From Malacoraja senta (taxonomy: Eukaryota), in NCBI GenBank assembly GCA_038087875.1, contig CM075994.1, positions 3,350,001 through 3,414,000 on the forward strand: 64,000 nt of DNA. Reading direction: 5' to 3'. How positions within the stretch are numbered: the first letter of the stretch is position 1; the number at the start of each line of letters is the position of its first letter. The notes beneath the pieces were generated by a model. The model was not told the DNA's origin and did no database searches. It was given only the letters and a program-made list of their open reading frames with translations. Position numbers and translations under genes: made by a program. Shown one piece after another: positions 4,171 to 62,287 of this stretch.

Positions 4171-4197
4171 AAAATGAAACTCTGCAGATAAAAATCG
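4171..4197 (+). CDS. Candidate 27-nt micro-exon, phase 1-1: (E)NETLQIKI
   Basis: ttattttaaccttacag|AAAATGAAACTCTGCAGATAAAAATCG|gtaatg; open only in phase 1. Confidence 0.6.
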
Positions 4198-4484
4198 GTA
4201 ATGTACAATATCATTCGGAATGTTTAAGTAACGTAATCATTTTCCTGTTACTTGTGATGCAATTTCTCTCCTTGCAATAATGAAGAAAATTACCGGCAGC
4301 TGCAATCCGAGTTAAAGATCCGCATTTCATTTCACCCAAAAGAAATCGAGAGGATGTAATTTTGAATTATATTAACTAAACTAACGTCTCGTTGTGATGA
4401 GATAAAATACACCAATAATATATAAGTGGCTAGATTCCTTCCATTTACTGTAAAGATACATGAATCGACAGCTGGAAAATACAT

Positions 4485-4790
4485 CATAGAACATTAAACA
4501 GTACAGCACAGGAACTGCCTCTTATCTTCGGCCAAATAAACCCATGCCAACATGATGCCAAATTAAGCTAATATCCGCCCACACGAGATTAATTTCCACC
4601 ATTTCTTTCATATCCACGTGCCCTGATAAAATCCTCTAAAATCTCACTCCTCTCTGCCTCTTCCACCGCTCCGGCATTGTGTTCCCAAGAGCCACCCCAC
4701 TCAGAGGAAAATTAAAACTTGCCCCGCACATTAGCTTTAACTTTGTCCTCGCAGCTTAAATCTGCGGCTACAATCCTTGATATATATTCT
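4485..4790 (-). mobile_element. Old CR1 LINE 3' end
   Basis: catagaacat..acagcacaggaa tail region followed by a degenerate ORF2 C-terminus resembling the younger CR1 copies in the window. Confidence 0.55.
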
Positions 4791-6036
4791 GACTGTTCAG
4801 ACAACGTACAATAATTAACCAGTTTACATGATCTGTGTCCATAGGCAACAAGAGTAAATCTCAATATATGGTCATTCTCATCACAAGTGGTATAGATCAA
4901 ATTCAGTTGCGCCAATGTAGTTTTTCGTGATGGAACTAAAAACTAACTTCTAGCATCCAATGAAAATGTAAATGCGCAATGGGATATTGACACAAATTCC
5001 TTTAATTGAATTGTAGACGACACGGATTCTAAAACTGTATTCAAGCTTTGGAAAATAATCGATGTGCCACCAACGATAAGAGAATGGACATGAGATCGAC
5101 GGAATGTTCCCTGGATCTTTACTCAGAGGATTCTCAGTTTAATATTTCCTTTATGATTCGAACATTTCGAATTGTGATTCTTAGCGTCTGGATGCGATTA
5201 AGTCTGCATCGGTGGAACCGCTACTTCCTACCGTATAATCTAGATTTCGTAGAATGATATTAAAATCGCTGGTTCACTGCCGATATTTCCGGAAGTGTAG
5301 GTAACTGAAAGGTCCTGCTCTTATAACTAAATCTACGGTCTACATTTATGCCAGATACACACTTTCAGTTTGGCTTCGCCCCTCGTAATTTAAAAGAATT
5401 ACACGTTATTAATCATTCCGCAGACGACATATAGCTTGGTCATAAACTAACATTATAGGAGCTAATTATAGGAGTTAAATTTCGTTAATATAACTAAGTA
5501 TTAGTTATAGGTACATTATAGTGAGTATATTTTTACTAGTAGGCACTGTCGTAAAAGTGTATGCATAAAACTAACACGGAATATAACATGTTCAACTAAC
5601 AGCAGACAGGATGAACATATCATTTATCGCTTGAGAGTTAGCTAGTTATCCACTAATTCTACTAATGGCATGCTCCAGGTTTATTTCTTATTATTGATAT
5701 GTAAAAAAAATGTTACCATTGTGATAGATTAACATTTGACAATGCGACATATCAACATGGGCCATATTTGCCCCATATAAATATTATATTATTTTAAATG
5801 ACATAGGTGTCAACCACTGTGCTAAAACAAAATACAATTAATGCATGAGATTATGCTGTGAAATTACAACCAGCAACTCGTAGGCCATAGTGTATGGTCT
5901 GAAAAATGTATAAGTACTAGTCTCCGAAGAAACTACTAATTTATTAGGAAATTAGCATACTAAACTCTCGTGGACGCTGTTATAATATAGAATAGTTGCC
6001 CAAGTAATTGTTTGTCAAACTTGTCTATTCCTTCAG

Positions 6037-6060
6037 TTGAAAAATCGATGGAAATTAAAG
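6037..6060 (+). CDS. Candidate 24-nt micro-exon, phase 1-1: (V)EKSMEIK
   Basis: tgtctattccttcag|TTGAAAAATCGATGGAAATTAAAG|gtaatt. Confidence 0.6.
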
Positions 6061-6488
6061 GTAATTTTGAAATTTGTTGTTGTGCAAGCACTGCGAATAT
6101 CACTTGTTTTTAAATGTCTTCATTATAAAACTGTTTATAGGTCAGATTATTGACGGGGAAGCCGAGAGCTGAGGGAAAACCCGGTAGCATATTAATCACC
6201 GGGAATCTTACGAAATTGAAATGTACGTCGTTGCTGTAGAATAGGTTGCACGGTGCAATGATGTCCACCACAATCCTTTGTTAAGGATTCCACCGAATGG
6301 CTACAGGTATCTTGCAGAGTGGAAAATTAGCAAAAATGATCATGTTTCATATCACTACCAACACAAAGCATGGAGGATTGGACGAAACCAGCAGGCAGAC
6401 ATAGTTAGGAGAAAGAAGCAGGGTTTAAATGGTAGGAATTTGCTGCATTGCACCGTGTGTTACGCGCTATTTCGTACAGATTTCAGAT

Positions 6489-6818
6489 CGGCACGGTGGC
6501 GCAAAGGTGTAGTTGCTGCCTTCGTGCGCTTGCGGCGCCGGAGACCCGGGTTCGATCCTGACTACTGGTGCTATCTGTACGGAGTTTGTATCTTCTCCTC
6601 TTGTCCGGCGTGGGTTTTCTCCAAGTTATTTGGTTTTCTCCCACACTTCAAAGACGTACAGGTATGTATGTTAATTTGTATATCTGTAAATTGTCCCCAG
6701 CATATGTAGGATGGTGTTATTGGGTGGGGAACCCTGGTCGGTGCGGAATCGGAGGGCCGAAATGCCTGTTCCGCGTTGTATCTCTAAACTAAACTAAACT
6801 AAACTAACTAAACTAAAC
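6489..6818 (+). mobile_element. tRNA-derived V-SINE (HE1-like) with (TAAAC)n tail
   Basis: Box A GGTGGCGCA, box B GGGTTCGATCC, V-domain-like core (GGAGTTTGTA..TTCTCC..GCGTGGGTTTTCTCC..CTCCCACA..AAAGACGTACAGGT), LINE-like 3' end and TAAAC repeats. Confidence 0.88.
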
Positions 6819-7745
6819 TGTGAAAACCATATAGAGGATGAAGAGTTTCGCGTGCTGTACAAACATTTAATATTAAAAATCAGACTTTAATATTAGTACA
6901 ATAGCGATGGCTGCCAAGTGAAGTCTCTCTGTCCTCTGGTGCACCCCGTCACCTGCCCACACATATCCGCGTTGAATGGTCGGCCCAGATCACGCCAGTT
7001 CACGCGAGATCTCGAGCTCGACAAACGAAGATTCGAGACCAAAGAGGTCGAGTGAGGTGACCTGGTCTCGTGTAATTGACTCATCTGTTCGGGGTTGCGG
7101 CTGATTGAGTTGAGAGCGGGTTTAGTCGTGATGGCGTACGCCCTCTGTGGTCGGGTTGTGCCAACTGCACTGGTTGGACAATGTCCAAGTGTGCCGGATT
7201 AAGACGGTTCACGGAGACATTTTATTGTCTGCCACCCACGTCAATGATGAAAGCCGTGGCGTCGATCTGCAGTGATGTACGGTGGGAATGTCAGCGAAGG
7301 TAGACGTACTGGCAGGTCCGGAGGACGGGTGGGTGGTACATCGTTGTGAGACCATGTCGGGTCGTTGCGACTGCAGAGGCGGTTCTTGATGACCACGCGC
7401 CGCCAGGAGGAAGTCCCCTGGGACCGTAAGCGGGCTCCGTGCACCAGCTCGGCCGAGGCATTTGCCAAGTCCTCCTTTGGGATTGTGCGTATACGTAGCA
7501 TGACCCACGGCAATTCGTCAATCCATTCTGGGCCCGTGAGCCGTGCCTTGAGGGATGCCTTCATGTCCCGTTGAAAACGTTCGACGAGGCCGTTTGCTTG
7601 CGCGTGGTAGTCCGTTGTGTGGTGCAGATGATTTCCAAGCAGCCGGGCAATTGCTGACCACAGCGCAGAGGTGATCTGCGCACCTCTGTCGGTGGAGATG
7701 TCTGCCGGCACGCCAAAGTGGGCGATCCATTGGCGGTGAGGGCAC
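6819..7745 (-). mobile_element. Gypsy (CsRN1-type) integrase fragment plus 3' LTR remnant
   Basis: WIAHFGVPADISTDRGAQITSALW..HHTTDYHAQANGLVERF..LPWVML..AELVHG; VSVNRLNPAHLD near 7185-7220; minus-strand ..ACA terminus at 6819. Confidence 0.88.
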
Positions 7746-7865
7746 GTCCACAGGTCGCAGTGGAGGTATCCGAGAGCGGAACGGATCCTCGGGAAAAAAA
7801 CTGAGATCACGCTGCTTAACCGTGCCGCGCTCGTAGTTTGCGAAAGATCTGTAAAGTCTCCCGTT

Positions 7866-8260
7866 ACCATCCTCTATTTCAGGAAAACAATCCCAGCCAC
7901 TCCAGTAACTCTTTATAAAATATACAAAATTGTCAGACCGGCAACATCCTTGTTAATCTTTTCCGCATCTTCAGGAGAATAATCATATCATTCCTGCAGT
8001 GTGGCGATTAGGAGTGCATAAAACACAGCAAGTTCGTTCCCACTCATTCCTTATACCTCTGTACAATCATATGAGAACACTTGCACCTAGTGCTCAGTCC
8101 GATTAAGAGAAGCATAGTTCTTTTGTTGCCACTCCCAATTAACTATAGAGTTACAACTCATTTATTTCCCAAGGAGCTTCCATTTACTCTTGAAATCCTG
8201 CCTCCGTTTACCTCTCCAAGTGCAGCACTTCACACTTGTCTGGGTTAAAATTTAGAGACA
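7866..8260 (-). mobile_element. Old CR1 LINE fragment
   Basis: Degenerate similarity to the ORF2 3' part of the other CR1 copies (ggcaacatccttgttaatct..cagtgtggcga). Confidence 0.5.
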
Positions 8261-9246
8261 CTGGTCATAATCTTCCAAAGCTGTATTGAATCTGTTATGT
8301 TTCCCGTGATTAGCAACATGTACATATTAACATCTTAGACCAAAAATAGCGTCGGTGAACCCAGTAATTACACTCCAGTCTGTAATTCTTCGGCGATGCC
8401 AAAAGTTCCAGAATTAATAATGAGACACATAAAGAGTATTTTCTTCGTGGAGTACCAAAAGTAGATTGGTTATTTATATCACCTTGCATCTCATAAAAAT
8501 AAATCATATCAAATTGTACTTATGAAGTGACGTGGAATCTGGAGAGAAGAAATCCAGTCAGCGTGGTACATGCATACGTTTTATAAAATAGAGTAGTCAA
8601 CTTACCCATCAGAAATATGTATTTTGGGTTGTTAGGTGAAACACATGCGCTGCTCGGGTGAAGAATGCGACCCAACTCACACGGGACCAGCTCTATCAAA
8701 TTGCATAAACAGTCGATTCTCATATTAGAGAACGGCATGTTCAATTTTGTTGATCACGCAAATTTGGATCCCCGGTGACGCATGAGGCGGATAGCAAAAG
8801 ACCAAGGAACAAGAGCAAATAAAGCACGATGGCATTTCATACGGCATCTCCATACGTGAACATCAGTGGATTATTATCCAGTTGTGGGAATGTCCATTTT
8901 GGTCATTTGTGGAGCAGGTGCACAAGATATTTGTCTTCGACATTTGTATTAAGTTTTCCTTCGTATGCGAGAAGAGATTGTAGAAGATCTTGATTGTAAT
9001 AGCTACAAATGTGTAGAAGAGAAAGAAAAAAAACAGTTCGCATTTGTGGAGAGGGAGGGGAGCATTTGATCAAAGTAAAAATGATCAGCAAAACAATCAC
9101 AGACGACTTTAGAAAGAAATTAACAAATGAATGGAATCAGAAAAGCAGTTTGCTGTTTGGGATAGGGTATGGAAATTTACGTATCAGAAGGGAATCAGAA
9201 ACATCTTCAGATAATGAACATATCGAGCTGTGGAGTGAGAGCAGTA

Positions 9247-9537
9247 AGTTTAGTTTAGTTGAGTTCAGAGATAAAGGCCGGAAACTGGCCCTTCGGCCCA
9301 CCGAGTCATCACCGACCAACGATCCCCGCAAATTAACATTCTCCTCCACACACTATGGACAATTTACACACATCAATTAAACCTCCATACCTGTACGTGG
9401 GAGGAAAACCCCACGCGGTCAAGGGGAGAAAGTTCAAACTCCGTACAGACAGCACCCGTAGTCGGGATCGAACCAGGGTCTCCGGCGCTGAAAGCTCTTT
9501 AAGGCAGCAACACTACCGCTGCGCCACCGTGGCCGCC
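9247..9537 (-). mobile_element. V-SINE (HE1-like)
   Basis: Reverse complement of the 6489 SINE: GTTTA repeats, GGGATCGAACC, CTGCGCCACCGTG. Confidence 0.88.
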
Positions 9538-9822
9538 CATAGGTAGTTTTCACTTTCGAGAGATGGTTCAGAACTTGAAGGACCAATTAGTACAACCATT
9601 AAGTGCTACTGACACCAATATCACAATCTCTCATTATGAGACACAGGTCAACGCCGTACGAACCTGACTATTTAAAACAATGGATAGATGACATAGATTA
9701 TTTTCCATTCTCCCTCGTCCATAAGTTGTGACGCTCCATACGTTTCAACATTGATTTAAATAATGTTGTATATTTAAACGGAGGCGGACGGTATGTGCAA
9801 TAATCCCTGTATTCATCTTCAG

Positions 9823-9846
9823 AGTTGAAATCAAAACTGAAGGCCG
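9823..9846 (+). CDS. Candidate 24-nt micro-exon, phase 1-1: (E)LKSKLKA
   Basis: ctgtattcatcttcag|AGTTGAAATCAAAACTGAAGGCCG|gtaagc. Confidence 0.65.
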
Positions 9847-11099
9847 GTAAGCATGAATAAAAGTAATATGAGTAGAATTAAGTTTGTTTTTCCATTATGC
9901 ATCTTTTTTATGCCTGTATTTGGCACAAGGGACCCTGGCATTGAAATGGCAAAACAATGTAATACCTTAAATTATTCCAGAACAGTTCCTGCAACTGAAG
10001 AGCTTCTTCACCACCAGACAGATTTTTTAAATCATTGTTTTTCGTAATGGTTTATGTTTAGAATATCAAAGCCATTTCTATTAGAGTGAATGAGGAATGA
10101 GAAAAACAATTAGGAAAGACAGATGTGGGAAATTAAGCTATGGCATAACAAATAATTAGTGGTCAATTTCAGGTTTAGGAAAATACATGAGAAATGGTTA
10201 TTACTGTTGTTTTCATTGCCAATCGAGAAGGAAGAAGTGGACATGATAGCATTCGTTTGGCTAAACGTTGCCTCAACGTTGTATATAAACCGCCCCTTTA
10301 TCTGCTTGGTCTCTTAATCTATCTTTGGACATTGCACCGTTGGTTTATCAGTCTCATCAAATATGGTTTTGTGCATGCAATCGACGAGCCGACCTAATCC
10401 AGGTTATAATAAGTCCTGAGTATGGGGAATGCCATCCAGGATAATATGTTGTTGGTGGCGTGCTGCTCCTGCCATGGGTTTGGAGAATTGCATGTGCCTG
10501 TAGTAGGACTTCATGTTTCAGTTATAATCTGGGGATTGAGGTTGGTGTAAGATTTCGAGATTTCCACCGCATTTCGGACCTCAGCTTGTAGTACCTTAGT
10601 CGTCAGATTGTTCACGGAGTTCGGGCAGAAGAGTGCTTTGTGCTGAGAAAGCGATACACATAGTATCTGTGACCACGGCTTAAAGTTATGTGGTGATGAC
10701 ATTTGATTGGGATCGCTGTCCTCAGTTAAAAGATTAACATTGCGGAAAGTACGTGCTTTACTCTCACGTTAACTACTCGTTTGATGGAATCGTTATTAAC
10801 TACACGTAATTGAATTTAAATTTTACTTTATTCATGCGCTGAAATCTTGGTTACTTTAATGAAGCAAATTGTCTTAAATATTCAATAGTCCTTAATTACA
10901 GCAAACACTGGTAGGTTCATTGGACGTTCTCGGCCTTCAGAATCCACCACTTCCAAATGAATAATACGAAGAGTAAATGTAATGAACGTGCTGGATCGAA
11001 CAGGATGCGGTCTGATTTCACATTGTTAAAAAGTATAGGCCAAATTGATGTCAAACCATATACGTATCAGGGATGTACATATTTATTTTGTTTTTACAG

Positions 11100-11108
11100 G
11101 AGAAGAAG
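11100..11108 (+). CDS. Candidate 9-nt micro-exon (G)EE; an alternative donor at 11136 gives 36 nt (G)EEGKDLTANCT
   Basis: atttattttgtttttacag|GAGAAGAAG|gtaagg; both versions are in-frame phase 1-1. Confidence 0.55.
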
Positions 11109-11279
11109 GTAAGGACCTGACTGCTAACTGTACAGGTAGAGCTGAGTTTTTAACTATTAAGATCGACATTTTATATTATGAATGCGCGTTTGATTGATGG
11201 TTCTACAAAGAGATTAAAAAAAACTTACATTTGTTTTTGTAAATAAATTTAGTATTTTATGATATCCGCATTTTTACAG

Positions 11280-11305
11280 GTTGAAATGTCTACATGGACA
11301 GATCA
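11280..11305 (+). CDS. Candidate 26-nt micro-exon; reads LKCLHGQI if one base is restored, otherwise an immediate TGA in phase 1
   Basis: ccgcatttttacag|GTTGAAATGTCTACATGGACAGATCA|gtaagt; the start resembles exons 9823 (AGTTGAAATC) and 48163 (AATTGAAATC). Confidence 0.5.
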
Positions 11306-11619
11306 GTAAGTGTAAAAGACTCGGCCATATTTTGCCAACACTCTATATTCGTGATCTATCTTTCTGTAAATAAAACGGATGAATACAATTAACTAAAGCA
11401 AAGATGCAAACAATACAGGTTAAGATTACACGTATAAAAACAGTTGAGGTACTACACTTGCTGACCGCTACCCCCGGCGGCCATAATCTTTTCCCCTCTT
11501 CTTATCCTGCGCATCTCTCAGCCACAGATCCCTCTCCCAATAGATCTTGTATTTTAACTATTAAATTCCAAGGACATTATACATTTCAGTTAGAGTTGCA
11601 AATCTGTAGGAAGTAACTG

Positions 11620-11820
11620 CAGATGCCAGTTTACACCTAAGAAAGACACAAAGTGCAGAAGTAACACAGCGGGACCTGCAGCATCTCTGGAGAACCGAAC
11701 GAATCACTTTTTTCCGGTCAGCCTGAAGAAGGGTCTCGAACCGAAATGTCACCCATTTCATCTCCCCAGAGATACTGCCTGTCCCGCTGAGTTACTCCAG
11801 AATTCTGCGTTTATCTTCAA
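11620..11820. mobile_element. Penelope-like element terminal repeat pair in inverted orientation
   Basis: gtaacacagcgggacctgcagcatctctgg (~11661) pairs with ccagagatactgcctgtcccgctgagttac (~11766); contains CTGAAGAAGGGTCTCGAACCGAAATGTC. Confidence 0.7.
11723..11751 (+). ncRNA. Minimal hammerhead ribozyme core (Penelope type), probably degenerate
   Basis: CUGAAGA - short helix II (GGGUCUCGAACC) - GAAA - UGUC. Confidence 0.5.
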
Positions 11821-12659
11821 ATGTAAATCTCCTCAGTTCACCTGTAATTTATCTTTACTTGCCAGGCGCCTTCATTCTGTTTTTTTTACCAAGTAGTCAC
11901 ATATTATGCAGTTCCCAAATTTCGCTGACTATAGTTCTCAATCAGTGAGCACGTTTATGTTGCTGCACTAAGGTAAACAAGGATCTTAGCCGTGACGACA
12001 TATATCAGGGGATCCATTGCAAAGCTGCACCTGGGAAAATACTTGAATGAACGGCATTAAAAGTATCTGAGAAGGAATGGTGTCTTCGTCACGTTCTCGG
12101 GAAGGCAGAATATGGACCAGCAACATAGGATTGGTGAACTGCCATCAAGACAATCTATATGAAATTTAAAACACTTCGGGTGATGACCTGCGCAAATTTC
12201 AGTTGACTAGCCCTCATATTTTATTTAGACCCGAATTTGGTGCCCAGAGATATTGTTAAATTACTTTGGATTCGAGCTTGATCCACTAAAGTGACATATT
12301 GTCGGATATGAGTGCAATTTGCAAAATTGCAAGTAATATGAATATGCTTGCAAATTTCAGAGTGACTCATACTTCTTTTGTCGGGGTGGGTGGGGATGGG
12401 GGGTGGTAAAAACATCAATGGTATTCTGATTCATTTTCTCATTCAGAAATAACGATGACCTAATCATTAATTTGCCGATTTAAACGGCAAACTATTTGTA
12501 ATCCGACTGATAGTGTTCCTCTCTGCCGCCGAGCTGCAATGATGTTAAGTAAAAAAAGTGCAAGCTTACTCACCTGCATTTGCTAAATTTACCTCTGCCC
12601 GAAATGAATTGAAGCTGCAGTATCTATATTTGGGGAACCTGGAATACCATGACGAATTA

Positions 12660-12944
12660 CAGTGGCTTGCAAAAGTATTCATACCCCTTGAACTTTTATT
12701 CATTTTGTCACGTTACAACCACAAACGTAAATGTATTTTATTGGGATTTTATGTGATAGACCAACACAAAGTGGTGGATAATTGTGAAGTGGAAGGAAAA
12801 TAATACATGGTTTTCAAATTTTTTTACAAATAAATAACTGAAAAGTGTCGCGTGCAAAAGTATTCAGCCCCCCTGAGTCAATACTTTGTAGAACCACCTT
12901 CCGCTGCAATTACAGCTGCAAGTCTTTTGGGGTATGTCTCTACC
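12660..12944 (-). mobile_element. Tc1 transposon end (IR/DR-type TIR plus transposase C-terminus)
   Basis: TA|CAGTGGCTTGCAAAAGTATTCATACCCC with the direct repeat GCAAAAGTATTCAGCCCC at ~12854; minus ORF ends ETYPKRLAAVIAAEGGSTKY*. Confidence 0.9.
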
Positions 12945-15231
12945 CCTCCACCCACACACAAAAAACTGCCCCCCCCCCTGTTTAATGCTGAATTCTGTGG
13001 ATGATTTCCTAACGAAATATGTGCAAATTTGTCTCTTAATACATTCCAGATTTCATTGTCTGACTGCTCATGTGTGGTATCATAATTTTCCACTCCGCTC
13101 TCCCATTTTTACTTGGCTTTCAAAGCGGAGACCCTTCAAATACTGAATAATTATCAATGCCTTGAAGAAACTACCAAAGTAACTCTGGTTCCTTAGCTGC
13201 CTACATTATCAAGATGAGTGAAAGGTTATCATTTCCATGACAACATGAACAACTATTAAACGTTGACTACAACAATTAACACGATTAATATATTAATGGT
13301 TTAGAAACAAATGCCTTAATTTACGACCTGTTTGATCATAAATACTGAGACAAATACAGATAATTGACACATATTCTTTAATTTGTAAATATTATGTTTT
13401 TATTTCTGCCTACTCAATTTCAACGAAGCGATATTTTCGACATGACGATAGAAGTTAAACAGGAATATTTCCCATTGTGTCGTCAGTGGAATTACTCTTG
13501 TTCATCATTCGCCATTGTACAAAATACGTCATCCATAGCTGAAGCATAGCCCAGCAGATGCAAGTAGAACCAGGGCAACAATTTCAGCATCATTGTTTTC
13601 GTGTGGGCGTCCATAAAATTTTGGGGGGGGGGGGGGTTTCACGTTAGAACTGTGGCAACCTACTTCGGAACTGCTGCCTTTTTCAATCCTTCTGCATTTA
13701 CATGCAAACCCAACAAATGTTAATTTAAGATGTGATTCTATTGTGCGAGGAGATCGCCATTTTCCAAACCAGAAATACCAACACAAAAGTGCAGAACAAA
13801 TCAAACGGAGACTTATCCCTAATAATTGAAAAAACAAAAGCAGATGAACCAAGTCAGTAAGTCCTGTTTTCCCCATTAACTTCCAGTTTTAGATGATAAA
13901 GTCTACAAGCGTTTTCTGTAGAATGGGGACTGTCGGACTTAATGGAAATGCAAACGAATTTCATTAAATTTGCACGGTTTGTTTGGTCGAATGGCCTAAT
14001 TCAGCTGCTAAGAACACGGACTTATGAAATCTGCAGTTTGCTTCTTAATTGATAATTGGTGATGGTAAATGTCCTGATCCTTTTGTAATATGTAAAGAAC
14101 GGGGTGCACAATAATTTGAGAGATCGAGAATCACCATTCATTCTCATACATAAATCATCTTTATCATGTTGGAGCCTGGATTTCTGTGCTAGCTGACTGC
14201 CAGATTTCTCGACTATGTCATGGAGCAACTGTTGTGAGTGCACCTTATTCGATCACGTGTGTGCTCAATAACAACACTTAATTTAAATATTGATTAAACA
14301 TTTGGCCCACAGCCAAGACCCGCGATGATTTTAGTGTATGTGAGAGATGGCCTAATTTTTGATACTTTTAATCTCTCTTGACATTGAGAATTAATTAAAC
14401 AATTAAGAAAATAAACGAATTATATAATTAAATAGTGAAACACCTGAATAGTCGACGGAACGAACAATCGACTGCTAAAAATATGTTCATTTCATCCCTT
14501 AACATTTGCTACAATGGAATTTTAAAAACTAATACGTCAATACGAACCATAATATTCTGTGCAAGTGTAGAGCCGAGTTAGCTTTCAAAATCGAGGAATA
14601 CGGCTCTGATGATTGACTGTGGTGTTGCACCTTTAATAGTCTTAGAATAATTATTTGCACTTTTCTAATTATTTAGAAGATACTTTGGAAGATCGGATCA
14701 CTAAAATACCACTATCCTCCACAACATCGCACACTTCTTTGCTCATATATCCTGAATACTGTTCGTTGAAGTTTAGATAAACATCAGACCAATGTACACC
14801 TCGAATTATTGCCCATTTCATTTGCAGCAACAACAAATAATATCAAGCAGCATACATAATGAGCGGGAACTTTTACGTAACATGCAAACAACGTTAGTAG
14901 TGTATTTAGATATGTTTTTGTAACTATCCATATGGAAATCTGCATATTAAGGTTAACGAATGGCATACTACTTGATTGGAAAGGGAGCTTTGGAAAGCTT
15001 AATGCGGAAATTTTCAATTCTGAAATAGATACATGCCGTGCCAACGTCGAAATTTAAGCGGCATCGATTTAATTTTGGGCACTGCATAGTGATAGCGAAT
15101 GGGTACTGAATACTATATATCGCATAATTTCCCCTTTGTAAGCATGCTGGTTATCAGGAGTGTTTCATCAATTTTAAATAATTAATCGTCTAATGTGAAA
15201 GAGAGTCATTCTGACATTTTGCTTTTATCAG

Positions 15232-15258
15232 GCGTGCCCATATGGGAACGATATCGAG
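15232..15258 (+). CDS. Candidate 27-nt micro-exon: (S)VPIWERYR in phase 1
   Basis: acattttgcttttatcag|GCGTGCCCATATGGGAACGATATCGAG|gtaaaa; open in all three phases. Confidence 0.6.
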
Positions 15259-15774
15259 GTAAAAATCATGAACAAAATTATTTTACATTCTAATGTCTGT
15301 GAGAGCTAATACGACTTTATATTGTTAACTATTTTTTTCAATTATATAAGCTACAATAACATACCATTTAATATAAAACAATCAACCGATATCTCGTAAC
15401 AAATAGAACAACAGGATTTTCAATTGTTTTATTTTTCTTTCACAAAAGGACGGTAGCTATATTGTAAATTGTTGCAACGAATCGTCGGAATCATAGATAC
15501 CTATTTACGAAAACAATTTATCTGCAATTCATAACCAGTTTTATCTTCTCGTTTCCATTTTTACGTGAAATATTGGGCCATTTTCTCTCCCTGCGACCGT
15601 CTTTTATCGGCGGAAGCTCCCGGGCTTTTCTGGGCTTGTTTTTCGGATTGAGCGCTTCCGCTGTTTAGATTAATTCTGTTCAAAGCTGCAAAGAAGATCA
15701 AATCACAGACATTTTCATTTTCAATTATTAATACTTCATTGTAACGCACATTTGCATTTCAATTTTTCTTAAAG

Positions 15775-15802
15775 AATGCAAAACAACTGCTCCAAAAGAC
15801 AA
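15775..15802 (+). CDS. Module-1 exon A, 28 nt; (E)CKQLLQKT if one A of an A-run is removed
   Basis: tttcaatttttcttaaag|AATGCAAAACAACTGCTCCAAAAGACAA|gtaagt; aligns with the 27-nt exon at 37868. Confidence 0.65.
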
Positions 15803-15944
15803 GTAAGTAGAACGTGAAATAAATGTGTTCATTTGGTTTGATTTCTGCGGACCGATGGCAGAGTTTTGCTCCCGATGCAGGGCAAAGGCAAGTTTGTTAG
15901 TTATGACAACAAAGATTTTATATCTACCTATCAATATATCTATC

Positions 15945-38574: not shown

Positions 38575-38601
38575 TGAGGCAACTACTTGTAAAAGATATC
38601 G
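38575..38601 (+). CDS. Module-2 exon B, 27 nt, phase 1-1: (M)RQLLVKDI
   Basis: attattctgttgtag|TGAGGCAACTACTTGTAAAAGATATCG|gtgaga. Confidence 0.8.
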
Positions 38602-46348: not shown

Positions 46349-46571
46349 ATGTTCCAAATGTGATTATTTTTCTAACCGATGTATCAAATTCAACCTAATA
46401 TTGTACCCTTCCTGAAATAATCCCATTAATGTACGTGCACCTCCAAATGGAGAGGCGAGAATTAATATCTCACTAACACGTAAGTCAAGGTTCTGTGACT
46501 TCCTCTACTTCATTTGACGTAAGTTGGCTGGTGGCTAGGCTGTTGGGGGTTTCCATAAAATATCCCATTAC

Positions 46572-48162: not shown

Positions 48163-48188
48163 AATTGAAATCATTAACAAATACTAAG
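48163..48188 (+). CDS. Candidate 26-nt micro-exon: (E)LKSLTNTK; one base short of phase 1-1
   Basis: attttctttcatttctcag|AATTGAAATCATTAACAAATACTAAG|gtaatt. Confidence 0.6.
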
Positions 48189-51220: not shown

Positions 51221-51221
51221 T

Positions 51222-51650
51222 CTACACGCTAGAATTTAGAAGATTGAGGCGGGGATCTTATAGTAACTTACAAAATTCTTAAGGGATTGGACAGGCTAGA
51301 TGCAGGAAGATTATTCCCGATGTTGGGGTAGTCCAGAACTAGGGGGTCACAGTTTAAGGATAAGAGGGAAGTCTTTTAGGACCGAGATGAGAAAATCATT
51401 GTTTACACAGAGAGTGGTGAATCTGTGGAATACTCTGCCACAGAAGGTAGTTGAGGCCAGTTCATCGGCTATATTTAAGAGCGATATAGATGTGGCCCTT
51501 GTAGCTAAAGGGGCAGGGGGTATGGAGAGAAGGCAGGGATGGGATACTGAGTTGGATGATCAGCCATGATCATATCGAATGGCGGTGCAGGCTCGAAAGG
51601 CCGAATGGCCTACTCCTGCACCTATTTTCTATGTTTCTATGTTTCTATGT
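51222..51650 (+). mobile_element. Second CR1 3' end in tandem directly after the first tail
   Basis: Diverged repeat of ~50800-51215 ending in (CTATGTTT)3. Confidence 0.93.
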
Positions 51651-51921: not shown

Positions 51922-51948
51922 AGTGGAATTCTCTTCTTTGATGTATAG
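51922..51948 (+). pseudogene. Module-3 exon A, 27 nt: (E)WNSLL*CI with an in-frame TGA at 51939
   Basis: attttgtgcttatgtgtag|AGTGGAATTCTCTTCTTTGATGTATAG|gtaagc; CTTCTT (LL) aligns with exon 37868. Confidence 0.65.
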
Positions 51949-52866: not shown

Positions 52867-54547
52867 TAACTTCTAACTCCAGCGAGTACAGGCGCAGGGC
52901 CGATAAACGCTCGTTACACCTCCCCCCAATTATTCCCGAGATCATTCTCGTCAACCTCTGATGGACCCTCTCCAACGCTCGCATTTCCAACATTATTTTC
53001 GAGACACAAAACTGCTCACAATACTCCAAATTTGGTCTGACTAGTGTTCTATAAACCCGTATTTTTTCTATTCTAGTCCTCTCGAAATTAATGCGAAATT
53101 TGCATTCCCTTAATTACTACCGATTCAACTTGCAAATTAACCTTTTGGAAATATTGCACATGCATCCCCTAGTCTCTTTGCGCCTGTGATTTCAAATTCC
53201 TCTCCCTATTTAGAAAATAGTATGCATTTATTCGTACTAGAAAGTGCACGACCACACATTTCGCTACGGTGTATTACATTTGCCACTTCAGAGCCCACCC
53301 TCCCAAGTCCTGCACAAGTCTTTCTGCAGGCTTCCGGTTTCCTCTTCAGTACCTGTCCGGCCGCTTGCCCCCAAAGCTAATAATTCCATAACTCAACGAG
53401 GAGAGTAGCGGCCCCATCATCGACCCCTGAGAAGCACCACGTGTAACCGGCAGCCAACCAGAAAAACACACTCTTAATTCAACTCTTGGCATTTTGTCAT
53501 TCAGCCAATCCACTATTCATGCCAATATCTTCGCGTTAATGGGCTCTTTCGTCTTGTTTAGCAGCTTCACGTGCGGCATCTTATCAAAGGCATTATGAAA
53601 ATCCAGGTAAACAAAATCCATTAGTCCTGCTATTTACTTTCTCAAATAATTTCAACATATGTGTCAGGGAAGATGTCCCCCTTCATTAAACCACCCTGAC
53701 CGGCCTATTTTATCATGTCCTTCTCAGTATTCATAGATTTCATCCGTAATAATGTACTCTAAAAACTTACCAGACACTGAATTCAGACTAACCGGCTTGT
53801 AGTGTCACCTCTATTTCCTCGCTCTCTTTCTGAAACAGTGGAATAACATTTGCGCTTTTCCAGTCAACTGTCACCACTACCGACTACAGTGATTCTTGAA
53901 TCATCACTACTAATTCCTCCATCTATCTATACTATTACTAAAACTGTCATCTCGACCACTTCCAGTTTGCTCTTTTTTTTAATTTGCGCAAAAACTGTAC
54001 CCTATATCGCTAGGATTTTTTTGTCACCTTACTCACCGTTCTCCTCTGCTCCAAACGTGCCACGTTTTGTTCCGAACGGTGGAAACCACTGTGTAGAGCC
54101 GGGAGGTGCTGTGTGGTGCCGCGGGCGGTGGCCGCTGAATGGAGTTCCTCCCCACACACACACACCCCTTCCCCCACGCCCCCACACCCCCATTCCGCCT
54201 CCACTCTCCCCCTTCCCCCTCCCGCTCCTCCCAACACACCCCATCTCTCCACAGACCCACACCCCCCCTTTACCACTCCCCGACCATCCCCATCCCCCAT
54301 CCCCCAACATCATCCGACCCCCCCCACACCACCACATCCCCCACACCACCACGCCCTCTGACACCACCCTGCCCCCTAAACCACCCCACCCCCACACACA
54401 CCACCGCACGCCCCCACACCGCCGCACCACCGCCACCACCCCACCGCTCCACATCACTCCCTCACCACCCCTCCCCCCCCCCCCCACAACGTCCCCTCCC
54501 CGCCACTACCCCGTCCTGCACACACACACTCCTCCACACCCCCCCTT

Positions 54548-57500
54548 AAATGAGATGGAGGAACTGAGCGAAATCCAGGTTAGTCGGGAAGTGGTGTTAG
54601 GTAAATTGAATGGATTAAAGGCCGACAAATCCCCAGGGCAGATAGGCTGCATCCCAGAGTACTTACGGAAGTAGCCCCAGAAATAGTGGATGCATTAGTG
54701 ATAAATTTTCAAAACTCTTTATATTCTGGAGTAGTTCCTGAGGAGTGGAGGGTAGGTAATGTAACCCCACTTTTTAAAAAGGGAGGGAGAGAGAAAACGG
54801 GGAATTACAGACCAGTTAGTCTAACATCGATAGTGGGGAAACTGCTAGTCAGTTATTAAAGATGGGATAGCAGCACATTTGGAAAGTGGTGAAATCATTG
54901 GACAAAGTCAGCATGGATTTATGAAAGGTAAATCATGTCTGACGTATCTTAAAGAATGTTTCGAGTATGTAACTAGTAGAGTGGATAAGGGAGAACCTGT
55001 GGATGAGTTATATCTGGACTTTCAGAAGGCTTTCGACAAGGTCCCACATAAGAGATTAGTATACAAACTTAAAGCACACAGTATTGGGGGATCAGTATTG
55101 ATGTGGATAGAGAACTGGCTGGCAGACAGGAAGCAAAGAGTAGGAGTAAACGGGTCCTTTTCAGAATGGCATGCAGTGACTAGTGGGGTACCGCAAGGCT
55201 CAGTGCTGGGACTCCAGCTAGTTACAATATATGTTAATGAATTGGACGAGGGAATTGAATGCAACATCTCCAAGATTGCGGATGACACGAAGCTGGGGGG
55301 CAGTGTTAGCAGTGAGGAGGATTCTAGGAGGCTGCAAGGTGACTTGGATAGGCTGGGTGAGTGGGTAAATGCATGGCAGATGCAGTATAATATGGATACA
55401 TGTGAGGTTATCCACTTTGGTGGCAAAAACAGGAAAGTAGACTGTTATCTGAATGGTGGCCGGTTAGGAAAAGGGGAGATGCAACAAGACCTGTGTGTCA
55501 CGGTACACCAGTCATTGAAAGTAGGCATGCAGGTGCAGAAAGGCAGGCAGTAGGCAGGCAGTGAAGAAAGCGAATGGTATGTTAGCATTCATAGCAAAAG
55601 GATTTGAGTATATGACGGGGAGATTTGCAAAGGCTACTGGGGAGACTTTAAACTAGAACGGTTGGGGTGAGAGAATCAAATAGAGAAAGCTATTAGAAAA
55701 TGTGGGAGGCAGGAGGCAGAGAAGGGAAGCTCTCGGACCCAAAATGTAGGGGAGAAAGAAGAAAATGTAGGGGAGAAATAAGAAAAAGAAAATAAACAGA
55801 GAATAAGTGGTGGTGGGTTTCTTAAATGTGTATATTTTAATGCTAGGAGCATTGTAAGAAAGGTGGATGAGCTTAGAGCCTGGATTGACATCTGGAAGTA
55901 CGCTGTTGTGGCGATCAGTGAAACATGGTTGCAGGAGGGCTGTGATTGGAAACTAAATATTCCAGGATTTCGTTGCTTCAGGGGTGATAGAATTGGAGGG
56001 GCAAGAGGTGGGTGTGTTGCATTACTTGTCAAGGAAGATATTACAGCAGTGCTTTGGCAGGATAGATTAGAGGGATCGTCTAGGGAGGATATTTAGGTGG
56101 AACTGAGAAATGGGAAAGGTGTAGCAACACTTATAGGGGTGTATTATAGACCGCCAAATGGGGAGCGAGAATTGGAAGAGCAAATATGTAAGGAGATAGC
56201 AGATATTAGTAGTAAGCACAAGGTAGTGATTGTGGGAGATTTCAATTTTCCACACATAGAGTGGGAAACACATACTGTAAAGGGGCTGGATGGTTTGAAG
56301 TTTGTAAAATGTTTGCAGGATAGTTTTTTGCAGCAATACGTCGAGGTACCTACTAGAGAAGGGGCAGTGCTGGACCTCCTGTTAGGAAATGAGACAGGGC
56401 AGGTGGCGGAGGTATGCGTTGTGGAGCACTTCGCGTCCAGTGATCACAATACCATTAGTTTCAATATAATTATGGAGAGGGTCAGAACTGGACCTAGGGT
56501 TGAGATTTTTGATTGGGGAAAGGCTAACTTTGAGGAGATGCGAAATGATTTAAAAGGTGTGAATTGGGACATGTTGTTTTATGGGAAGGATTTAGAAGAA
56601 AAACGGAGGACATTTAAAGGTGAAATTTTAAGAGTACAGAATCTTTATGTCCCTGTTCGGTTGAAAGGAAATAGTAAAAATTGGAAAGAGACATGGTTTT
56701 CACTGGAAATTGGACAATTGATTCGGAAAAAGAGAGAGATCTACAATAATTATAGGAAGCATGGAGTAAATGAGGTGCTTGAGAAGTATAAGGAATGTAA
56801 AAAGAATATTAAGAAAGAAATTAGAAAAGCGAAAAGAAGGTATGAGGTTGCTTTGGCAAGTAAGGTGAAAGTAAATCCAAAGGTTTTCTACAGCTATATT
56901 ATTAGCAAAAGGATAACAAGGAATAAAATTGGTCCATTAGAGAGTCAGCGTGGACAGCTATCTGCAGAGCCAAAAGAGATGGGGGCGATATTGAACAATT
57001 TCTTTTCTTCGGTATTCACCAAGGAGAAGGATATGGAATTATGTGAGGTAAGGGAAAGCGGAGTAGCAGTGGAAACTATGAGATTCAAAGAAGAGGAAGT
57101 GCGGACACTTTTGAAAAATATAAAAACGGATAAGTCTCCAGGTCCTGACAGGATATTCCCCAGAACATTGAGGGAAGTTAGTGTAGAAACAGCAGGGGCT
57201 ATGACAGAAATATTTCAAATGTCATTAGAAACGGGAATAGTGCCGGAGGATTGGCGTACTGCGCATGTTGTTCCGTTGTTTAAAAAGGGTTCTAAGAGTA
57301 AACCTAGCAATTATAGACCTGTTAGTTTGACGTCAGCGGTGGGCAAATTAATGGAAAGGATACTTAGAGAAAATATATATAAGCATCTGGATAAGCAGGG
57401 TCTGATTAGGAACAGTCAACATGGATTTGTGCCTGGAAGGTCATGATTGACTAATCGTCTTGAATTTTTCGAAGAGGTTACTAGGGAAATTGATGAGGGT

Positions 57501-59381
57501 AAAGCAGTGGATGTTGTCTATATGGACTTCAGTAAGGCCTTTGACAAGGTTCCTCATGGAAGGTTGGTTAAGAAGATTCAATCGTTGGCTATTAATGGTG
57601 GAGTAGCAAGATGGTTTCAACCGTGGCTGAATGGGAGATGCCAGAGAGTAATGGTGGATTGCTGTTTGTCAGGTTGGAGGCTTGTGACTAGTGGGGTGCC
57701 TCAGGGTCTGTGTTGGGTCCTCTGTTGTTTGTCATGTACATCAATGATCTGGATGATGGTGTGGAAAATTGGATTAGTAAGTATGCAGATGATACTAAGA
57801 TAGGTGGTGTTGTGGATAATGAAGTCGATTTTCAAAGTCTACAGAGAGATTTAGGCCATTTGGAAGAGTGGGCTGAAAGATGGCAGATGGAGTTTAATGC
57901 TGATAAATGTGAGGTGCTACATCTCAGCAGGACAAATCAAAATAGGACGTACATGGTAAATGGTAGCGAATTGAGGAATGCAGTTGAACAGAGGGATCTA
58001 GGAATAACTGTGCATAGTTCCCTGAAGGTGGAATCTCATGTAGATAGTGTGGTAAAGAAAGCTTTTGATGTGCTGGCCTTTATAAATCAGAGCATTGAAT
58101 ATAGAAGTTGGGATGTAATGTTAAAATTGTACAAGGCATTGGTGAGGCCAATTCTGGAGTATGGAGTACAATTTTGGTCGCCTAATTATAGGAAGGATGT
58201 CAACAAAATAGAGAGAGTACAGAGGAGATTTACTAGAATGTTGCCTGGGTTTCAGCAACAAAGTTACAGAGAAAGGTTGAACAAGTTAGGTCTTTATTCT
58301 TTGGAGCGCAGAAGGTTAAGAGGGTACTTGATAGAGGTCTTTAAAATTATGAGCGGGTTAGACAGAGTTGACGTGGATAAGCTTTTCCCATTGAGAGTAG
58401 GGAAGATTCAAACAAGGGGACATGACTTGAGAATTAAGGAACAGAAGTTTAGGGGTAACATTAGGGGGAACTTCTTTACTCAGAGAGTGGTAGATGTGTG
58501 GAATGAGCTTCCAGTGGAAGTGGTGGAGGGAGGTACGATTTTATCATTTAAAAAGAGATTGGATGGGTATATGGACGGGAAAGGAATGGAGGGTTATGGT
58601 CTGAGTGCAGCTAGAAGGGACTAGGGGGGAGTAATAAAAATAAAAATAAAAATAAATACAAATAAAATTTAAAAAATTATAAAATTAAAAAAGTGTTCGG
58701 CACGGACTTGAAGGGCCGAGATGGCCTGTTTCCGTGCTGTAATGGTTATATGGTTATATGGTTATATGAGCAGGGAGGTTCTACTGCAGTTGTACGGGGT
58801 CTTGGTGAGACAACACCTGAAGTATTGCGTACAGTTTTGGTCTCCTAATCTGAGGAACGACATTCTTGCCTTAGAGGGAGTACAGAGAAGGTTCACCAGA
58901 CTGATTCTTGGGATGTCAGGACTTTCATATGAAGAAAGACTGGATAGACTTGGCTTGTACTCGCTAGAATTTAGAAGATTGAGGGGGGATCTTATAGAAA
59001 CTTACAAAATTCTTAAGGGGTTGGATAGGCTAGATGTAGGAAGATTGTTCCCGATGTTGGGGAAGTCCAGAACAAGGGGTCACAGTTTAAGGATAAGGGG
59101 GAAATCTTTTAGGACCGAGATGAGAAAAACATTTTTCACACGGAGAGTGGTAAATCTCTGGAATTCTCTGCCACAGAAGGTAGTTGAAGCCAGTTCATTG
59201 GCTATATTTAAGAGGGAGTTAGATGTGGCCCTTGTGGCTAAAGGTATCAGTGGGTATGGAGAGAAGGCAGGTACAGGATACTGAGTTGGATGATCAGCCA
59301 TGATCATATTGAATGGCGGGGCAGGCTCGAAGGGCCCAATGGCCTACTCCTGCACCTATTTTCTATGTTTGCATGTTTCTA
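54548..59381 (+). mobile_element. 5'-truncated CR1 (54548-55615 and 58770-59381) split by another CR1
   Basis: ORFs 54879-55553 and 58721-59284; GATTTGAGTATATGA|GCAGGGAGG reconstitutes the sequence seen at ~50594 (GATTTGAGTATAGGAGCAGGGAG). Confidence 0.95.
55616..58762 (+). mobile_element. CR1 LINE, (TTATATGG)n subfamily, full-length ORF2 with several stops and frameshifts
   Basis: LKCVYFNARSI start near 55820; ORFs 55863-56096, 56097-57446, 57447-57803 and 57710-58624 (YADD); TATATGA duplicated at 55609-55615 and 58763-58769. Confidence 0.97.
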
Positions 59382-61169
59382 ACTCCCCTCTCCAACACCC
59401 ACCTCCCCCACACTCCCTATCTACACACCCTCTCCACCACACCCAACTCTCCCACACCCCCCTCTCCCCCACACCACACTCCCCCACCCCCCTCCCCCAC
59501 AACCCCCCCCTCCCTCACACGCCATTCCTCCCCCACATAATCCCCCATCCCCCAACGCCACCCCGCAACCTCCCCTCCCCCACACCCACCCTCCCCCAAA
59601 ACCCCACACCACCCACTACCCCACACAAACCCCCTCCCCACACCCATCCCTCCGCCACACCATCCCCCCTCCCCCACACCAAACCCTCCCCCACACCACC
59701 GACTCCCTCCCCCACACCACCCCCTCACCCACACCATGGTGGAATATTGCATTGGGGAATGGGTTGCGTTGGGGGATCAGGCCTACCGTGTGACTGGGAC
59801 CCAACGGGTCCCACTTAGTCTAGTACTCTCTAAAGCTGAATCTTTCAGAGCCCTGGGATATAATCAATCTGGTCCATGTGACTTATACAACTTCAAATAC
59901 TTCAACTGGCCAAGCATCTTCTCCTTAATTAAAGCGCCTCCACTAACTTCTTCCCCCTGACATTCTTGAATTTCATGTTTGTTACTTGTGTCTTCCGCTG
60001 TGAAGATTTAGTAGTAGTGGTCCCAACACTGACCCCTGTGAAAAACATATTATTCATCTGCCATTTCTTTAGTCATCATTGTTGCTTCTCCAACGTCATT
60101 TTCCAGCGATTCAATGTCCACTCCAACGGCTCTTATAATCTTTAAATATCCGAAGAAACATGTGCCTTTTACATTAGTGTCTACTTGGACTTGATATTTC
60201 CATTATTGGCTTCATATTTCATCTTTCCTCCCCTTATTTGCATCTTAGTTACCTTCTGTTGATTTTACAAGGCTTCCCAATCCTTTAACTTCACACTAAT
60301 ATTGACAATATCGTATGCATTGACTCTTAGTGTTATGCTGCCTTTGACTTTTTTGTCAGCCACTATCGTCTCAGTCTCCCCTTATCATCTTTCTTTCTCT
60401 TTGGGATGAAAAGATCCGGCTTCTTTCGAATTACACCCAGAAACTCCTAGCATTGCTGCTCCACCGTCATTCCTGATGGGTGCCCTTTACAATTAACTTT
60501 GTCCAACCATTCGCACATGCTTGTATATTTAGTTTTACTCAACATTATTACCGATACATCTGATTTCATCTTCTATCTCTAAAACTGCAAGCTGCATTCT
60601 ATCATGTTATGTTCACTGCCACCTAGGGGTTCATTTACCTTCAGCTCCGTAATCAAATCCGGTTCGTTATACAACACTAAATCTAGAATTGCCTATCCTC
60701 GAGTAGGCTCGACTACAAGCTGCTGTGTGAAGAAATCTCGTAGGCACTTTAGAAATTCTTCTCTTGGGATCCAGTACCATCCAACATTTCGAAGTCTACC
60801 TGAATATTCAAAGCCCCATGATCACTATGACATTATCTTACTGACAGGAGAATATATCTGCTGATGTAATCTCTACCGTGCATTCTGGCCACTATTAGGA
60901 GGCTTGTATACTACTCTCATCAGGTTCTTTTTCCCCTGAGGTCTGACACAAACCACCGGTTTCGTGCAAATTCCTTAAATATTGCTCGAAATTCCTTTAA
61001 AATCGGCTCATAAGTGCCCATGTTTTTCCAGGGGCTGAACAATAAAAAGCTACGCACAATGCACATATAACATACATCCATTAGACTTAAACCCGTGTCG
61101 TGATTATTCAACATTTTCTAACATTTCATTTGAATGCACCAGTTGCTAGTGTTTTGGCTCGCTCCGGAA

Positions 61170-61822
61170 GCATATTGGCGTTTAGTACAAGAGGAGTCGA
61201 GTATAGGAGCAAAGAGCTCCTTCTGCAGTTGTACAGGGCCCAAGTGAGACCACATCTGGAGTATTGTGTGTAGTTTTCTTCCCCCAATTTGAGGAAGGAC
61301 TTTCTTGCTATTGTGGGAGTGCAGCGTAGGTTTACAAGGTTACTTCCCGGGATGGCGGGACTGTCATATGCTGAGAGAATATAGCGGCTGGGCTTGTACA
61401 CTCTGGAGTTTAGAAGGATGAGAGGGAATCCTATTGAAACATATAAGATTGTTAAGGGTTTGGACACGCTAGAGGCAGGAAACATGTTCCCGGTGTTGGG
61501 GGAGTCCAGAACCAGGGGCCACAGTTTAATAATAAGGGGTAAGCCATTTGGAACGGAGACGAGGAAACACTTTTTCTCACAGAGAGTTGTGAGTCTGTGG
61601 AATTATCTGCCACAGAGGGCGGTGGAGGCCGGTTCTCTGAATACTTTCAAGAGAGGGCTAGATAGGGCTCTTAAAGATAGCGGAGTCAGGGGATATGGGG
61701 AGAAGGCAGGAACGGGGTACTGATTGGGGATGATCAGCCATCATCACATTGAATTGCGGTGCTGGCTCGAAGGGCCGAACGTCGTACGCCTGCACCTATT
61801 GTCGATTCTCTATTGTCTGTTG
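61170..61822 (+). mobile_element. CR1 3' fragment
   Basis: ORF 61394-61723 (LEFRRMRGNPIETYKI..RVVSLWNYLP); CTATTGT tail remnant. Confidence 0.93.
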
Positions 61823-61954
61823 TAGCAGCGTCAATTCTGCATTTTGTTTCAATCCGTGAGGTTTATGTTTTCATTTGTTATCTAGAATTATGAATGTTAA
61901 ACGTCTAAGTACATGTCAACTCAAGATTTAGCTAAGTACAATACTCTATTACAG

Positions 61955-61978
61955 AAGGCTTGCAACAAAAAGGTCAAG
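61955..61978 (+). CDS. Module-3 exon B, 24 nt, phase 1-1: (E)GLQQKGQ
   Basis: tactctattacag|AAGGCTTGCAACAAAAAGGTCAAG|gtgaat; LxxKxx before an EI exon as in modules 1 and 2. Confidence 0.55.
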
Positions 61979-62251
61979 GTGAATGTGACGACATTTCTAT
62001 ATTCTATTCTGAGAGCAATATGCCCTCAAATGTCTGATTGTGGAATGGCAGGTCCGGAAATGGTCCAATGTTTGCCTATTTATTATTATCTTTGCAAGCA
62101 CGATTTCCTTCCTGTTAATTTATTTTACATTTCACGACAAATATTTTCATCAGACAAACTCCCGGAACCGCAGCGAATTTACATTACTAAATTTTGGCAT
62201 GATATTTATTTTGGAAATATAATACTGCTTGTTGCAATTGTTTGATTTCAG

Positions 62252-62287
62252 AAATAGAAAAACTTCGAAAAAGTTTACAGGATGCTG
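62252..62287 (+). CDS. Module-3 exon C, 36 nt, phase 1-1: (E)IEKLRKSLQDA
   Basis: attgtttgatttcag|AAATAGAAAAACTTCGAAAAAGTTTACAGGATGCTG|gtgagc. Confidence 0.82.

Follow-up and report, generated by a model that had tools for sequence, protein, structure and literature searches.

Does a series of AG...GT-bounded segments of a few dozen nucleotides (nt), strewn through repeat-laden DNA, represent a gene, and what would such a gene encode? The question is raised by a 64,000-nt stretch of the Malacoraja senta genome (contig CM075994.1, positions 3,350,001-3,414,000; the contig is C18 of our genome G000, 1.94 Gb), hereafter the window, whose own coordinates are used for segments. A first-pass annotation of this stretch proposed a hidden gene of about 18 tiny phase-1 exons that spells a coiled coil across 58 kb and has both ends outside the window. 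With a probability of roughly 0.72, we consider that the window covers the central part of a very long gene for a protein (at least 264 kb), whose coding sequence would consist almost entirely of 24-, 27- and 36-nt phase 1-1 exons.

Candidate segments were scored with two sets of splice-site matrices, one generic (approximate frequencies) and one trained solely on flank exons outside the window. With the flank-trained matrices, 13 of 43 segments on the + strand of the window were 24, 27 or 36 nt long, compared to 1 of 24 on the - strand, and block resamples (n=20) contained 1.55 such segments on average and never more than 4. This minus-strand and resampling control had been suggested with the first-pass annotation, and it came out in favor of a + strand excess. 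The generic matrices gave 14 of 54 and 3 of 38, respectively. When applied to 264 kb (the window plus 100 kb on either side), they retrieved 63 segments of these lengths among 274 candidates on the + strand (27 nt, 37; 36 nt, 16; 24 nt, 10) and 2 among 208 on the - strand (1, 1 and 0, respectively). Only 2 of the 274 candidates were 21 nt long. The earlier proposal of a 24/27/36-nt exon set in place of 21-nt exons is borne out to this extent, with a 33-nt linker and a 9-nt exon to be added to the set.

The reading frame points the same way. Among 50 flank exons picked regardless of stops, none contained a stop codon in phase 1, compared to 33 and 30 in the other two frames, and the last base was G in 47. 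Over 264 kb, 71 of 74 core exons are free of stops; together, they amount to 2,040 coding nt across 261 kb, with a median intron of 1,983 nt. We are nearly certain that a real coding micro-exon array is present.

A paralog located at 4.05-4.07 Mb of the same contig, ~690 kb away, is collinear with the window. Counterparts with AG and GT were found for 15 of 15 segments inside the compared paralog DNA, a comparison that left out 4171, 6037 and 29375. Identity to the paralog is 85% in exon columns (346) vs 75% in deep intron (9,103; p=1e-6). For nine regular exon pairs read in phase 1, nonsynonymous and synonymous differences per site (pN and pS) are 0.112 and 0.300, with a nonsynonymous-to-synonymous ratio (dN/dS) of 0.32, compared to ratios of 1.16 and 1.28 in the other two frames. 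When AG..GT segments common to both genes were listed blindly, the 14 rows retrieved comprised 12 of the exons listed below, one sub-variant and one unrelated segment. Sequence statistics and the paralog comparison show that these exons encode protein and that purifying selection acts on them in phase 1.

All 18 segments of the first-pass annotation were confirmed, with AG and GT, on the + strand at the starts it had given. Their lengths, in order, are 27, 24, 24, 9, 26, 27, 28, 27, 36, 33, 27, 27, 36, 27, 26, 27, 24 and 36 nt:

4171-4197, + strand: 27-nt phase 1-1 exon NETLQIKI; passes flank-trained matrices.
6037-6060, + strand: 24-nt phase 1-1 exon EKSMEIK; passes flank-trained matrices; 71% identity with two upstream 24-nt exons.
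9823-9846, + strand: 24-nt phase 1-1 exon LKSKLKA; paralog identity 23/24, splice sites retained.
11100-11108, + strand: 9-nt phase 1-1 exon EE; paralog identity 9/9; best splice sites of the window.
11280-11305, + strand: 26-nt off-frame segment; phase-1 entry leads to a stop at the second codon; relic or truncating cassette.
15232-15258, + strand: 27-nt exon, VPIWERYR in phase 1 (frame tentative); paralog identity 24/27.
15775-15802, + strand: 28-nt exon, 27 nt in the paralog; window-specific +1 within an A run.
28745-28771, + strand: 27-nt phase 1-1 exon RQILFKNA, copy 1 of the family marker exon; paralog 24/27; marker pattern at paralogous loci.
29375-29410, + strand: 36-nt phase 1-1 exon IIQLQDKMRIT; passes flank-trained matrices.
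36399-36431, + strand: 33-nt phase 1-1 linker exon GGSKDDEAFN; also 33 nt in the paralog, splice sites retained.
37868-37894, + strand: 27-nt phase 1-1 exon CKKLLQAS; paralog 26/27, sole change synonymous.
38575-38601, + strand: 27-nt phase 1-1 exon RQLLVKDI, copy 2 of the family marker exon; paralog 26/27, sole change synonymous.
41604-41639, + strand: 36-nt phase 1-1 exon IGKLTTKLHEA; 36 nt in the paralog, identity 27/36.
42341-42367, + strand: 27-nt phase 1-1 exon DALKSKDT; 27 nt in the paralog, both splice sites present.
48163-48188, + strand: 26-nt phase 1-to-0 segment LKSLTNTK; inclusion terminates the frame; relic or truncating cassette.
51922-51948, + strand: 27-nt segment with a phase-1 TGA in both genes; in phase 0, SGILFFDV and then TAG.
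61955-61978, + strand: 24-nt phase 1-1 exon GLQQKGQ; a 27-nt exon minus 3 nt in frame, as the paralog and the local duplicate both have 27 nt.
62252-62287, + strand: 36-nt phase 1-1 exon IEKLRKSLQDA; paralog 6.5 synonymous/2.5 nonsynonymous; local duplicate 35/36, change synonymous.
59872-63238, + strand: copy 1 of a local duplication, carrying a 27+36-nt exon pair; 80-82% identical to copy 2 at window-equivalent 72575-76310.

The symmetric phase 1-1 structure ascribed to nearly all segments is found without stops in 14 of the 18 (127 amino acids together, 0 stops), the four irregular ones being 11280, 15775, 48163 and 51922. Likewise, the statement that none lies inside a transposon stands for the 16 segments free of overlap with self-BLAST repeats; 61955 and 62252 are inside the local duplication. 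The second copy of exon 61955 (27 nt) sits ~11 kb beyond the window end. The duplication copied precisely one 27+36-nt pair, so the mode of array growth is visible here.

The proposed single reading through all 18 segments with three 1-nt corrections is not supported: uncorrected, its first stop is at codon 28, and three of the four irregularities recur in the paralog. Segment 11280 is 26 nt in both genes (23/26 identical; p=0.07 vs the intron rate), and there are no differences from it in a contig of sequencing run X1 covering 9509-11748 (X1 may be the source of the assembly). Segment 48163 is also 26 nt in both (21/26 identical, 1 synonymous/4 nonsynonymous), and its acceptor is strong in each. 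Each of these two segments has only 2 matches in the genome. For 51922, the phase-1 TGA is common to both genes and identity (21/27) is no higher than in introns. The peptides assigned to 11280 and 51922 are thus not supported, these features being shared and not 1-nt errors; most of the proposed corrections are wrong, and a window-specific +1 is present at 15775 only. Homopolymer errors as the cause of all three lengths not divisible by three were ruled out for 11280 and 48163.

Because their irregularities are present in both genes, 11280, 48163 and 51922 are off the main path; they are either relics that predate the duplication or cassettes that shorten the rod. In the paralog, the counterpart of 51922 reads SGIIFFEVS in phase 0 and the following exon begins with TGA, so that with 48163 followed by 51922 in phase 0, the frame terminates at roughly the same place in both genes. 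That the shared off-frame segments (11280; 48163 with 51922) serve as cassettes ending the rod early, so that its length would vary like that of chicken BG tails, is plausible, at somewhat less than even odds. The idea that 48163 is a terminal exon using a shared read-through stop codon proved weak, 37868 and 38575 being alike in this respect (3/11, one of the 11 misplaced). By eye, 11280-11305 and 51922-51948 are alike at ~16/26 positions, and they may have descended from one exon.

Several smaller observations concern individual segments. Compared to the paralog, exon 15232 shows 0 synonymous/2 nonsynonymous changes in phase 1 and 2 synonymous/1 nonsynonymous in phase 2; a phase-2 M-G start at this exon was rejected, since it needs a 2-to-1 exon and none is there. 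The 9-nt exon 11100 has a second GT at +36, also found in the paralog (32/36 identity over 11100-11135), and 9- and 36-nt forms may alternate. Three well-scoring segments of non-standard length (11, 18 and 37 nt), one at 718-754 and the others upstream of the window by 2,920 and 2,105 nt, total 66 nt and might restore the frame as a trio before 4171. Acceptors at 14828, 61032 and 77190 are common to both paralogs without a shared donor; all three may be chance, and those at 14828 and 61032 may alternatively belong to terminal exons. Segments 10902-10910 and 53565-53606 look exon-like, have no paralog counterpart and are probably due to chance.

What would the array encode? The 71 stop-free core exons joined in genomic order give 679 residues (K 14, E 14, L 13 and P 0.6%) with 1 N-glycosylation sequon vs 2.2 expected. 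The hydrophobic power of this peptide peaks at a period of 3.4-3.5; its period-3.5 power (0.435) was matched by 0 of 500 residue shuffles and 1 of 500 exon-order shuffles. Adjacent exons therefore hold the heptad phase, which argues for in-order splicing. L, I, V, M or F occupies positions 2, 5 and 9 of 36-nt exons in 71%, 94% and 71% of cases, and the 27-nt class is hydrophobic at position 4. The exon after a 36-nt one is 27 nt long in every case (17/17), and spacing between 36-nt exons is 21 amino acids in 4 of 16 cases and 30 in another 4. A 27+36-nt pair corresponds to 9+12=21 residues, or three heptads. Single exons cannot sustain a protein-database search: the profile of a 36-nt exon reached -10 bits against its true target, and single-exon open reading frames (ORFs) gave E of at least 400.

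We propose the following mechanism. Introns of ~2 kb would separate 24-, 27- and 36-nt phase 1-1 exons; spliced in genomic order, these would, as we strongly infer, give rise to an alpha-helical coiled-coil rod of at least 680 residues with the 27+36-nt pair as its basic unit, and the rod would have been lengthened as blocks of exons were duplicated in tandem; one such block can still be recognized. Splicing in order into one or more long coiled coils is very likely on these data. The earlier claim of a hidden gene of tiny phase-1 exons that encodes a coiled coil and extends past the window is thus upheld by strand, length and frame, by dN/dS and by periodicity. It is an evenly balanced proposition that the array, free of any large known domain, encodes a dimeric rod or tether that resides inside the cell and belongs to a lineage-expanded family; an immune or germ-line scaffold role would be the most likely one, because the contig is rich in TRIM/B30.2 immune genes.

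The dimensions given earlier, 58 kb and about 18 exons, hold for the reality of the exons and not for the extent: the array continues beyond both window ends up to both limits of the 264 kb and is part of a multi-locus cluster. Probes of 10 kb at 3.15 and 3.70 Mb contained the array (5 segments each on the + strand, 0 on the - strand); the signal was weak at 3.05 Mb (1 segment), not clearly that of the array at 3.60 Mb (1 segment), and nil at 4.55 Mb, where a separate TRIM gene lies. A degenerate pattern of the RQLLVKDI-type marker exon matched 13 sites genome-wide, compared to 1 for the control, and 10 of these were on C18:

C18 at 3.009, 3.016, 3.379 and 3.389 (these two in the window), 3.706, 4.057, 4.062 and 5.645 Mb, + strand: marker-exon matches to the degenerate pattern.
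C18 at 5.022 and 5.598 Mb, - strand: marker-exon matches to the degenerate pattern.

The 3 remaining matches, on small contigs, are near-duplicates of those on C18. Matches on contigs C4996 and C4876 are 0-1 base from the C18 matches at 5.02 and 5.60 Mb and are likely haplotype duplicates in the assembly. Predicted gene copies would thus be present at about seven loci on C18. The matches at 5.598 Mb (- strand) and 5.645 Mb (+ strand) are head to head, and the 47 kb between them would be expected to contain two 5' ends. In another organism (organism B), orthologous unique DNA of ~92-94% identity was found around 6037, 9823 and 11100-11280. No such family in skates, sharks or rays was found in the literature (mostly open-access text, without supplements), and there were 0 Rfam matches; the genes may be listed in public annotations as uncharacterized coiled-coil proteins.

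Several points weigh against the long-gene reading. Over window 3900-15990, sequencing runs X1, X23, X24 and X2 contain repeat-derived joints only and no splice joint, which has no bearing on expression. The count of 74 core exons is partly circular, the matrices having been trained on those very flanks. Since the array outruns 264 kb both ways, there may be one giant gene or several tandem genes. The distance from one 36-nt exon to the next is divisible by 7 in just 5 of 16 cases, so either there are breaks in the coil or exons are missing from the list. Conservation of 48163 and 51922 does not exceed that of introns (p=0.32 and 0.45), which suits dead exons or cassettes. Finally, 15775 bears a window-specific +1, an extra A; relative to the window, the X1 contig lacks one base somewhere within 13639-15814, and the +1 may be an assembly indel, an allele or a recent lesion.

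Could the array belong to a TRIM- or B30.2-linked gene, with an N-terminal RING/B-box or C-terminal PRY/SPRY exon and a hugely expanded coiled coil? Short phase-1 exons ahead of B30.2 are typical of TRIM and BTN genes, and C18 carries 25 of the best 150 SPRY matches (of 696 candidates) as well as the TRIM gene at 4.55 Mb. However, none of those 25 is at 2.9-4.5 Mb, and no RING, B-box or PRY/SPRY was found, that separate TRIM gene excepted, in a scan of 250 long ORFs, drawn from the probes and the 264 kb (150 of 234 on the + strand, 100 of 256 on the - strand), among which Pfam domains inside the array were those of transposons only. We consider this explanation unlikely.

A membrane-anchored gene resembling BG or TSBP1 would have an upstream transmembrane or signal exon, with the window exons encoding the cytoplasmic (or secreted) tail and Ig domains absent or too diverged. 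Its exon logic would be that of BG tails, with phase-1 split codons, heptads and stops near the last exons, as described in the relevant part of PMC5938342. A hydrophobic segment does lie ~56 kb upstream in unique DNA (C18:3,294,046-3,294,123; a 55-nt ATG-to-donor or 78-nt phase 1-1 exon) and is signal- or transmembrane-like, but 8 resamples of the 264 kb contained 0-4 comparable ones each, and exon classes are identical on either side of it (C18:3,294,069). No immunoglobulin V (IgV) domain of the BTN/MOG type was present at 2.9-5.7 Mb of C18 among 105 matches (130 scored); the probe, taken from this genome and itself BTN/MOG/B7-like, matched the contig only at 6.98, 7.09 and 7.56 Mb (E 2.3-6.3). 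V-set was absent from C18 among the 150 of 1517 candidates scored, and immunoglobulin C (IgC) domain PF22705 from C18, C4996 and C4876 among 149 matches (150 of 181 scored). The suggested inspection of flanks thus revealed no IgV or IgC, no PRY/SPRY in the ORFs scanned and one borderline transmembrane segment at the chance rate. With 21-nt exons not enriched either, we rate this explanation as distinctly unlikely, and the butyrophilin/BG link drawn earlier survives only as an analogy.

It is also conceivable that this copy of the gene died recently, in whole or in part, and that the signal of selection stems from its sister gene and from the past. The +1 at 15775, the 3-nt deletion at 61955, the TAG ending 51922 and heavy insertion of young long interspersed nuclear elements (LINEs) into introns are what such a copy would show. 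Against this, stops are missing from 71 of 74 core exons, symmetric exons are skippable, the shorter X1 contig over 15775 is what an assembly or allelic indel would yield, and the recent local duplicate of the 36-nt exon differs synonymously only. Death of this copy is accordingly improbable, and we regard it as probably functional with good confidence. A type II C-type lectin receptor (CD23/DC-SIGN-like) with the array as its neck, suggested by the 21-residue unit, is largely refuted and highly improbable, since sequons are scarce and no Lectin_C was found on C18 among 96 matches (112/112 candidates scored), split lectin exons having appeared on other contigs. Chance AG..GT segments in AT-rich intron DNA, for which weak generic scores at some sites and the paralog-less 10902 and 53565 might speak, are rejected by strand, length, frame, paralog and periodicity tests alike.

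The rest of the window is LINE, long terminal repeat (LTR) and simple repeat DNA:

16129-17757, 44273-47369, 48414-51650, 54557-59384 and 61172-61824; 883-1671, 7241-7873 and 62847-64000: CR1-like LINE copies and LTR-element fragments.

The 3' end of one CR1-like LINE carries a 427-bp tandem repeat (50797-51648). Several LINE/LTR copies are missing from the paralog and were therefore inserted after the duplication. Elsewhere on C18, an RRM exon (best PDB match RBM4B) is located at ~3.604 Mb on the - strand, between the window array and that at 3.70 Mb; the TRIM gene at 4.55-4.56 Mb has B-box and PRY/SPRY exons; and B30.2 exons are numerous, mostly at 9.8-11.6 Mb. Butyrophilin-type IgV and IgC exons cluster not on C18 but on small contigs (C4250, C4298, C2668, C5771 and others).

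How does the array compare with known systems? The CD23 (FCER2) stalk is built of a 21-residue three-heptad repeat, with one 63-nt exon per repeat, plus a lectin domain; the 21-residue unit is shared, but here it is split into 27+36 nt, with no lectin found on C18. The cytoplasmic tails of butyrophilins, ERMAP, MOG and TSBP1/C6orf10 are encoded in part by short phase-1 exons (21, 27 or 33 nt) for heptads; BTN/ERMAP genes have few of them along with Ig domains and B30.2, and TSBP1 exons are mostly 21 nt. The array shares the short phase-1 exons and differs in that no Ig was found in the cluster scans. To our knowledge, it would be among the most finely split vertebrate coding regions. Ab initio gene finders and six-frame searches can hardly see arrays of 24-36-nt exons, and annotations of this lineage may lack a gene cluster of well over a megabase or contain it in fragments.

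The coding regions of schistosome micro-exon genes (MEGs), in the portions of the two sources that concern them, consist mostly of very small symmetrical exons with long introns, and the genes form multigene families (PMC4350168; bioRxiv 10.1101/2023.06.21.545858); MEGs are described as flatworm-restricted, with signal peptides, and as varying by exon skipping. The 71 exons described here share the small symmetrical design. They differ in belonging to a vertebrate locus, in their heptad-periodic product with order-dependent exons and in that the sole signal-like segment is borderline and at the chance rate. Tentatively, and with some doubt, the locus may represent an undescribed vertebrate micro-exon gene family, a cluster of about seven members that have as many as 100 or more exons of 8-12 codons apiece and no globular domain, in which rod length is set by exon-block duplication and conserved stop cassettes: a counterpart of the schistosome MEGs that arose apart from butyrophilins.

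The closest parallel is chicken BG. As far as the relevant parts of PMC5938342 and PMC5043582 go, its coiled coil is made from many tiny split-first-codon exons of 21 nt (few of 18 or 24), ~27-38 per gene, which follow IgV and transmembrane exons; their number varies by block duplication, splicing shortens the tails and the genes form a tandem cluster. Phase-1 split-codon micro-exons, the coiled coil, block duplication and tandem clustering are shared with what those parts describe. The array departs from BG and BTN in lacking IgV and IgC among the matches scored at C18 2.9-5.7 Mb and in its unit, being made of 24/27/36-nt exons, at least about 70 over 264 kb, of which no single one is a whole heptad (21-nt exons, 2/274). 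On the best reading, these genes encode lineage-expanded long coiled-coil rods, built like the chicken BG tail but from 9+12-residue exon pairs. They would represent a second arithmetic for making heptads from exons, and they offer a direct test of the idea, proposed for BG tails, that splicing tunes coiled-coil length.

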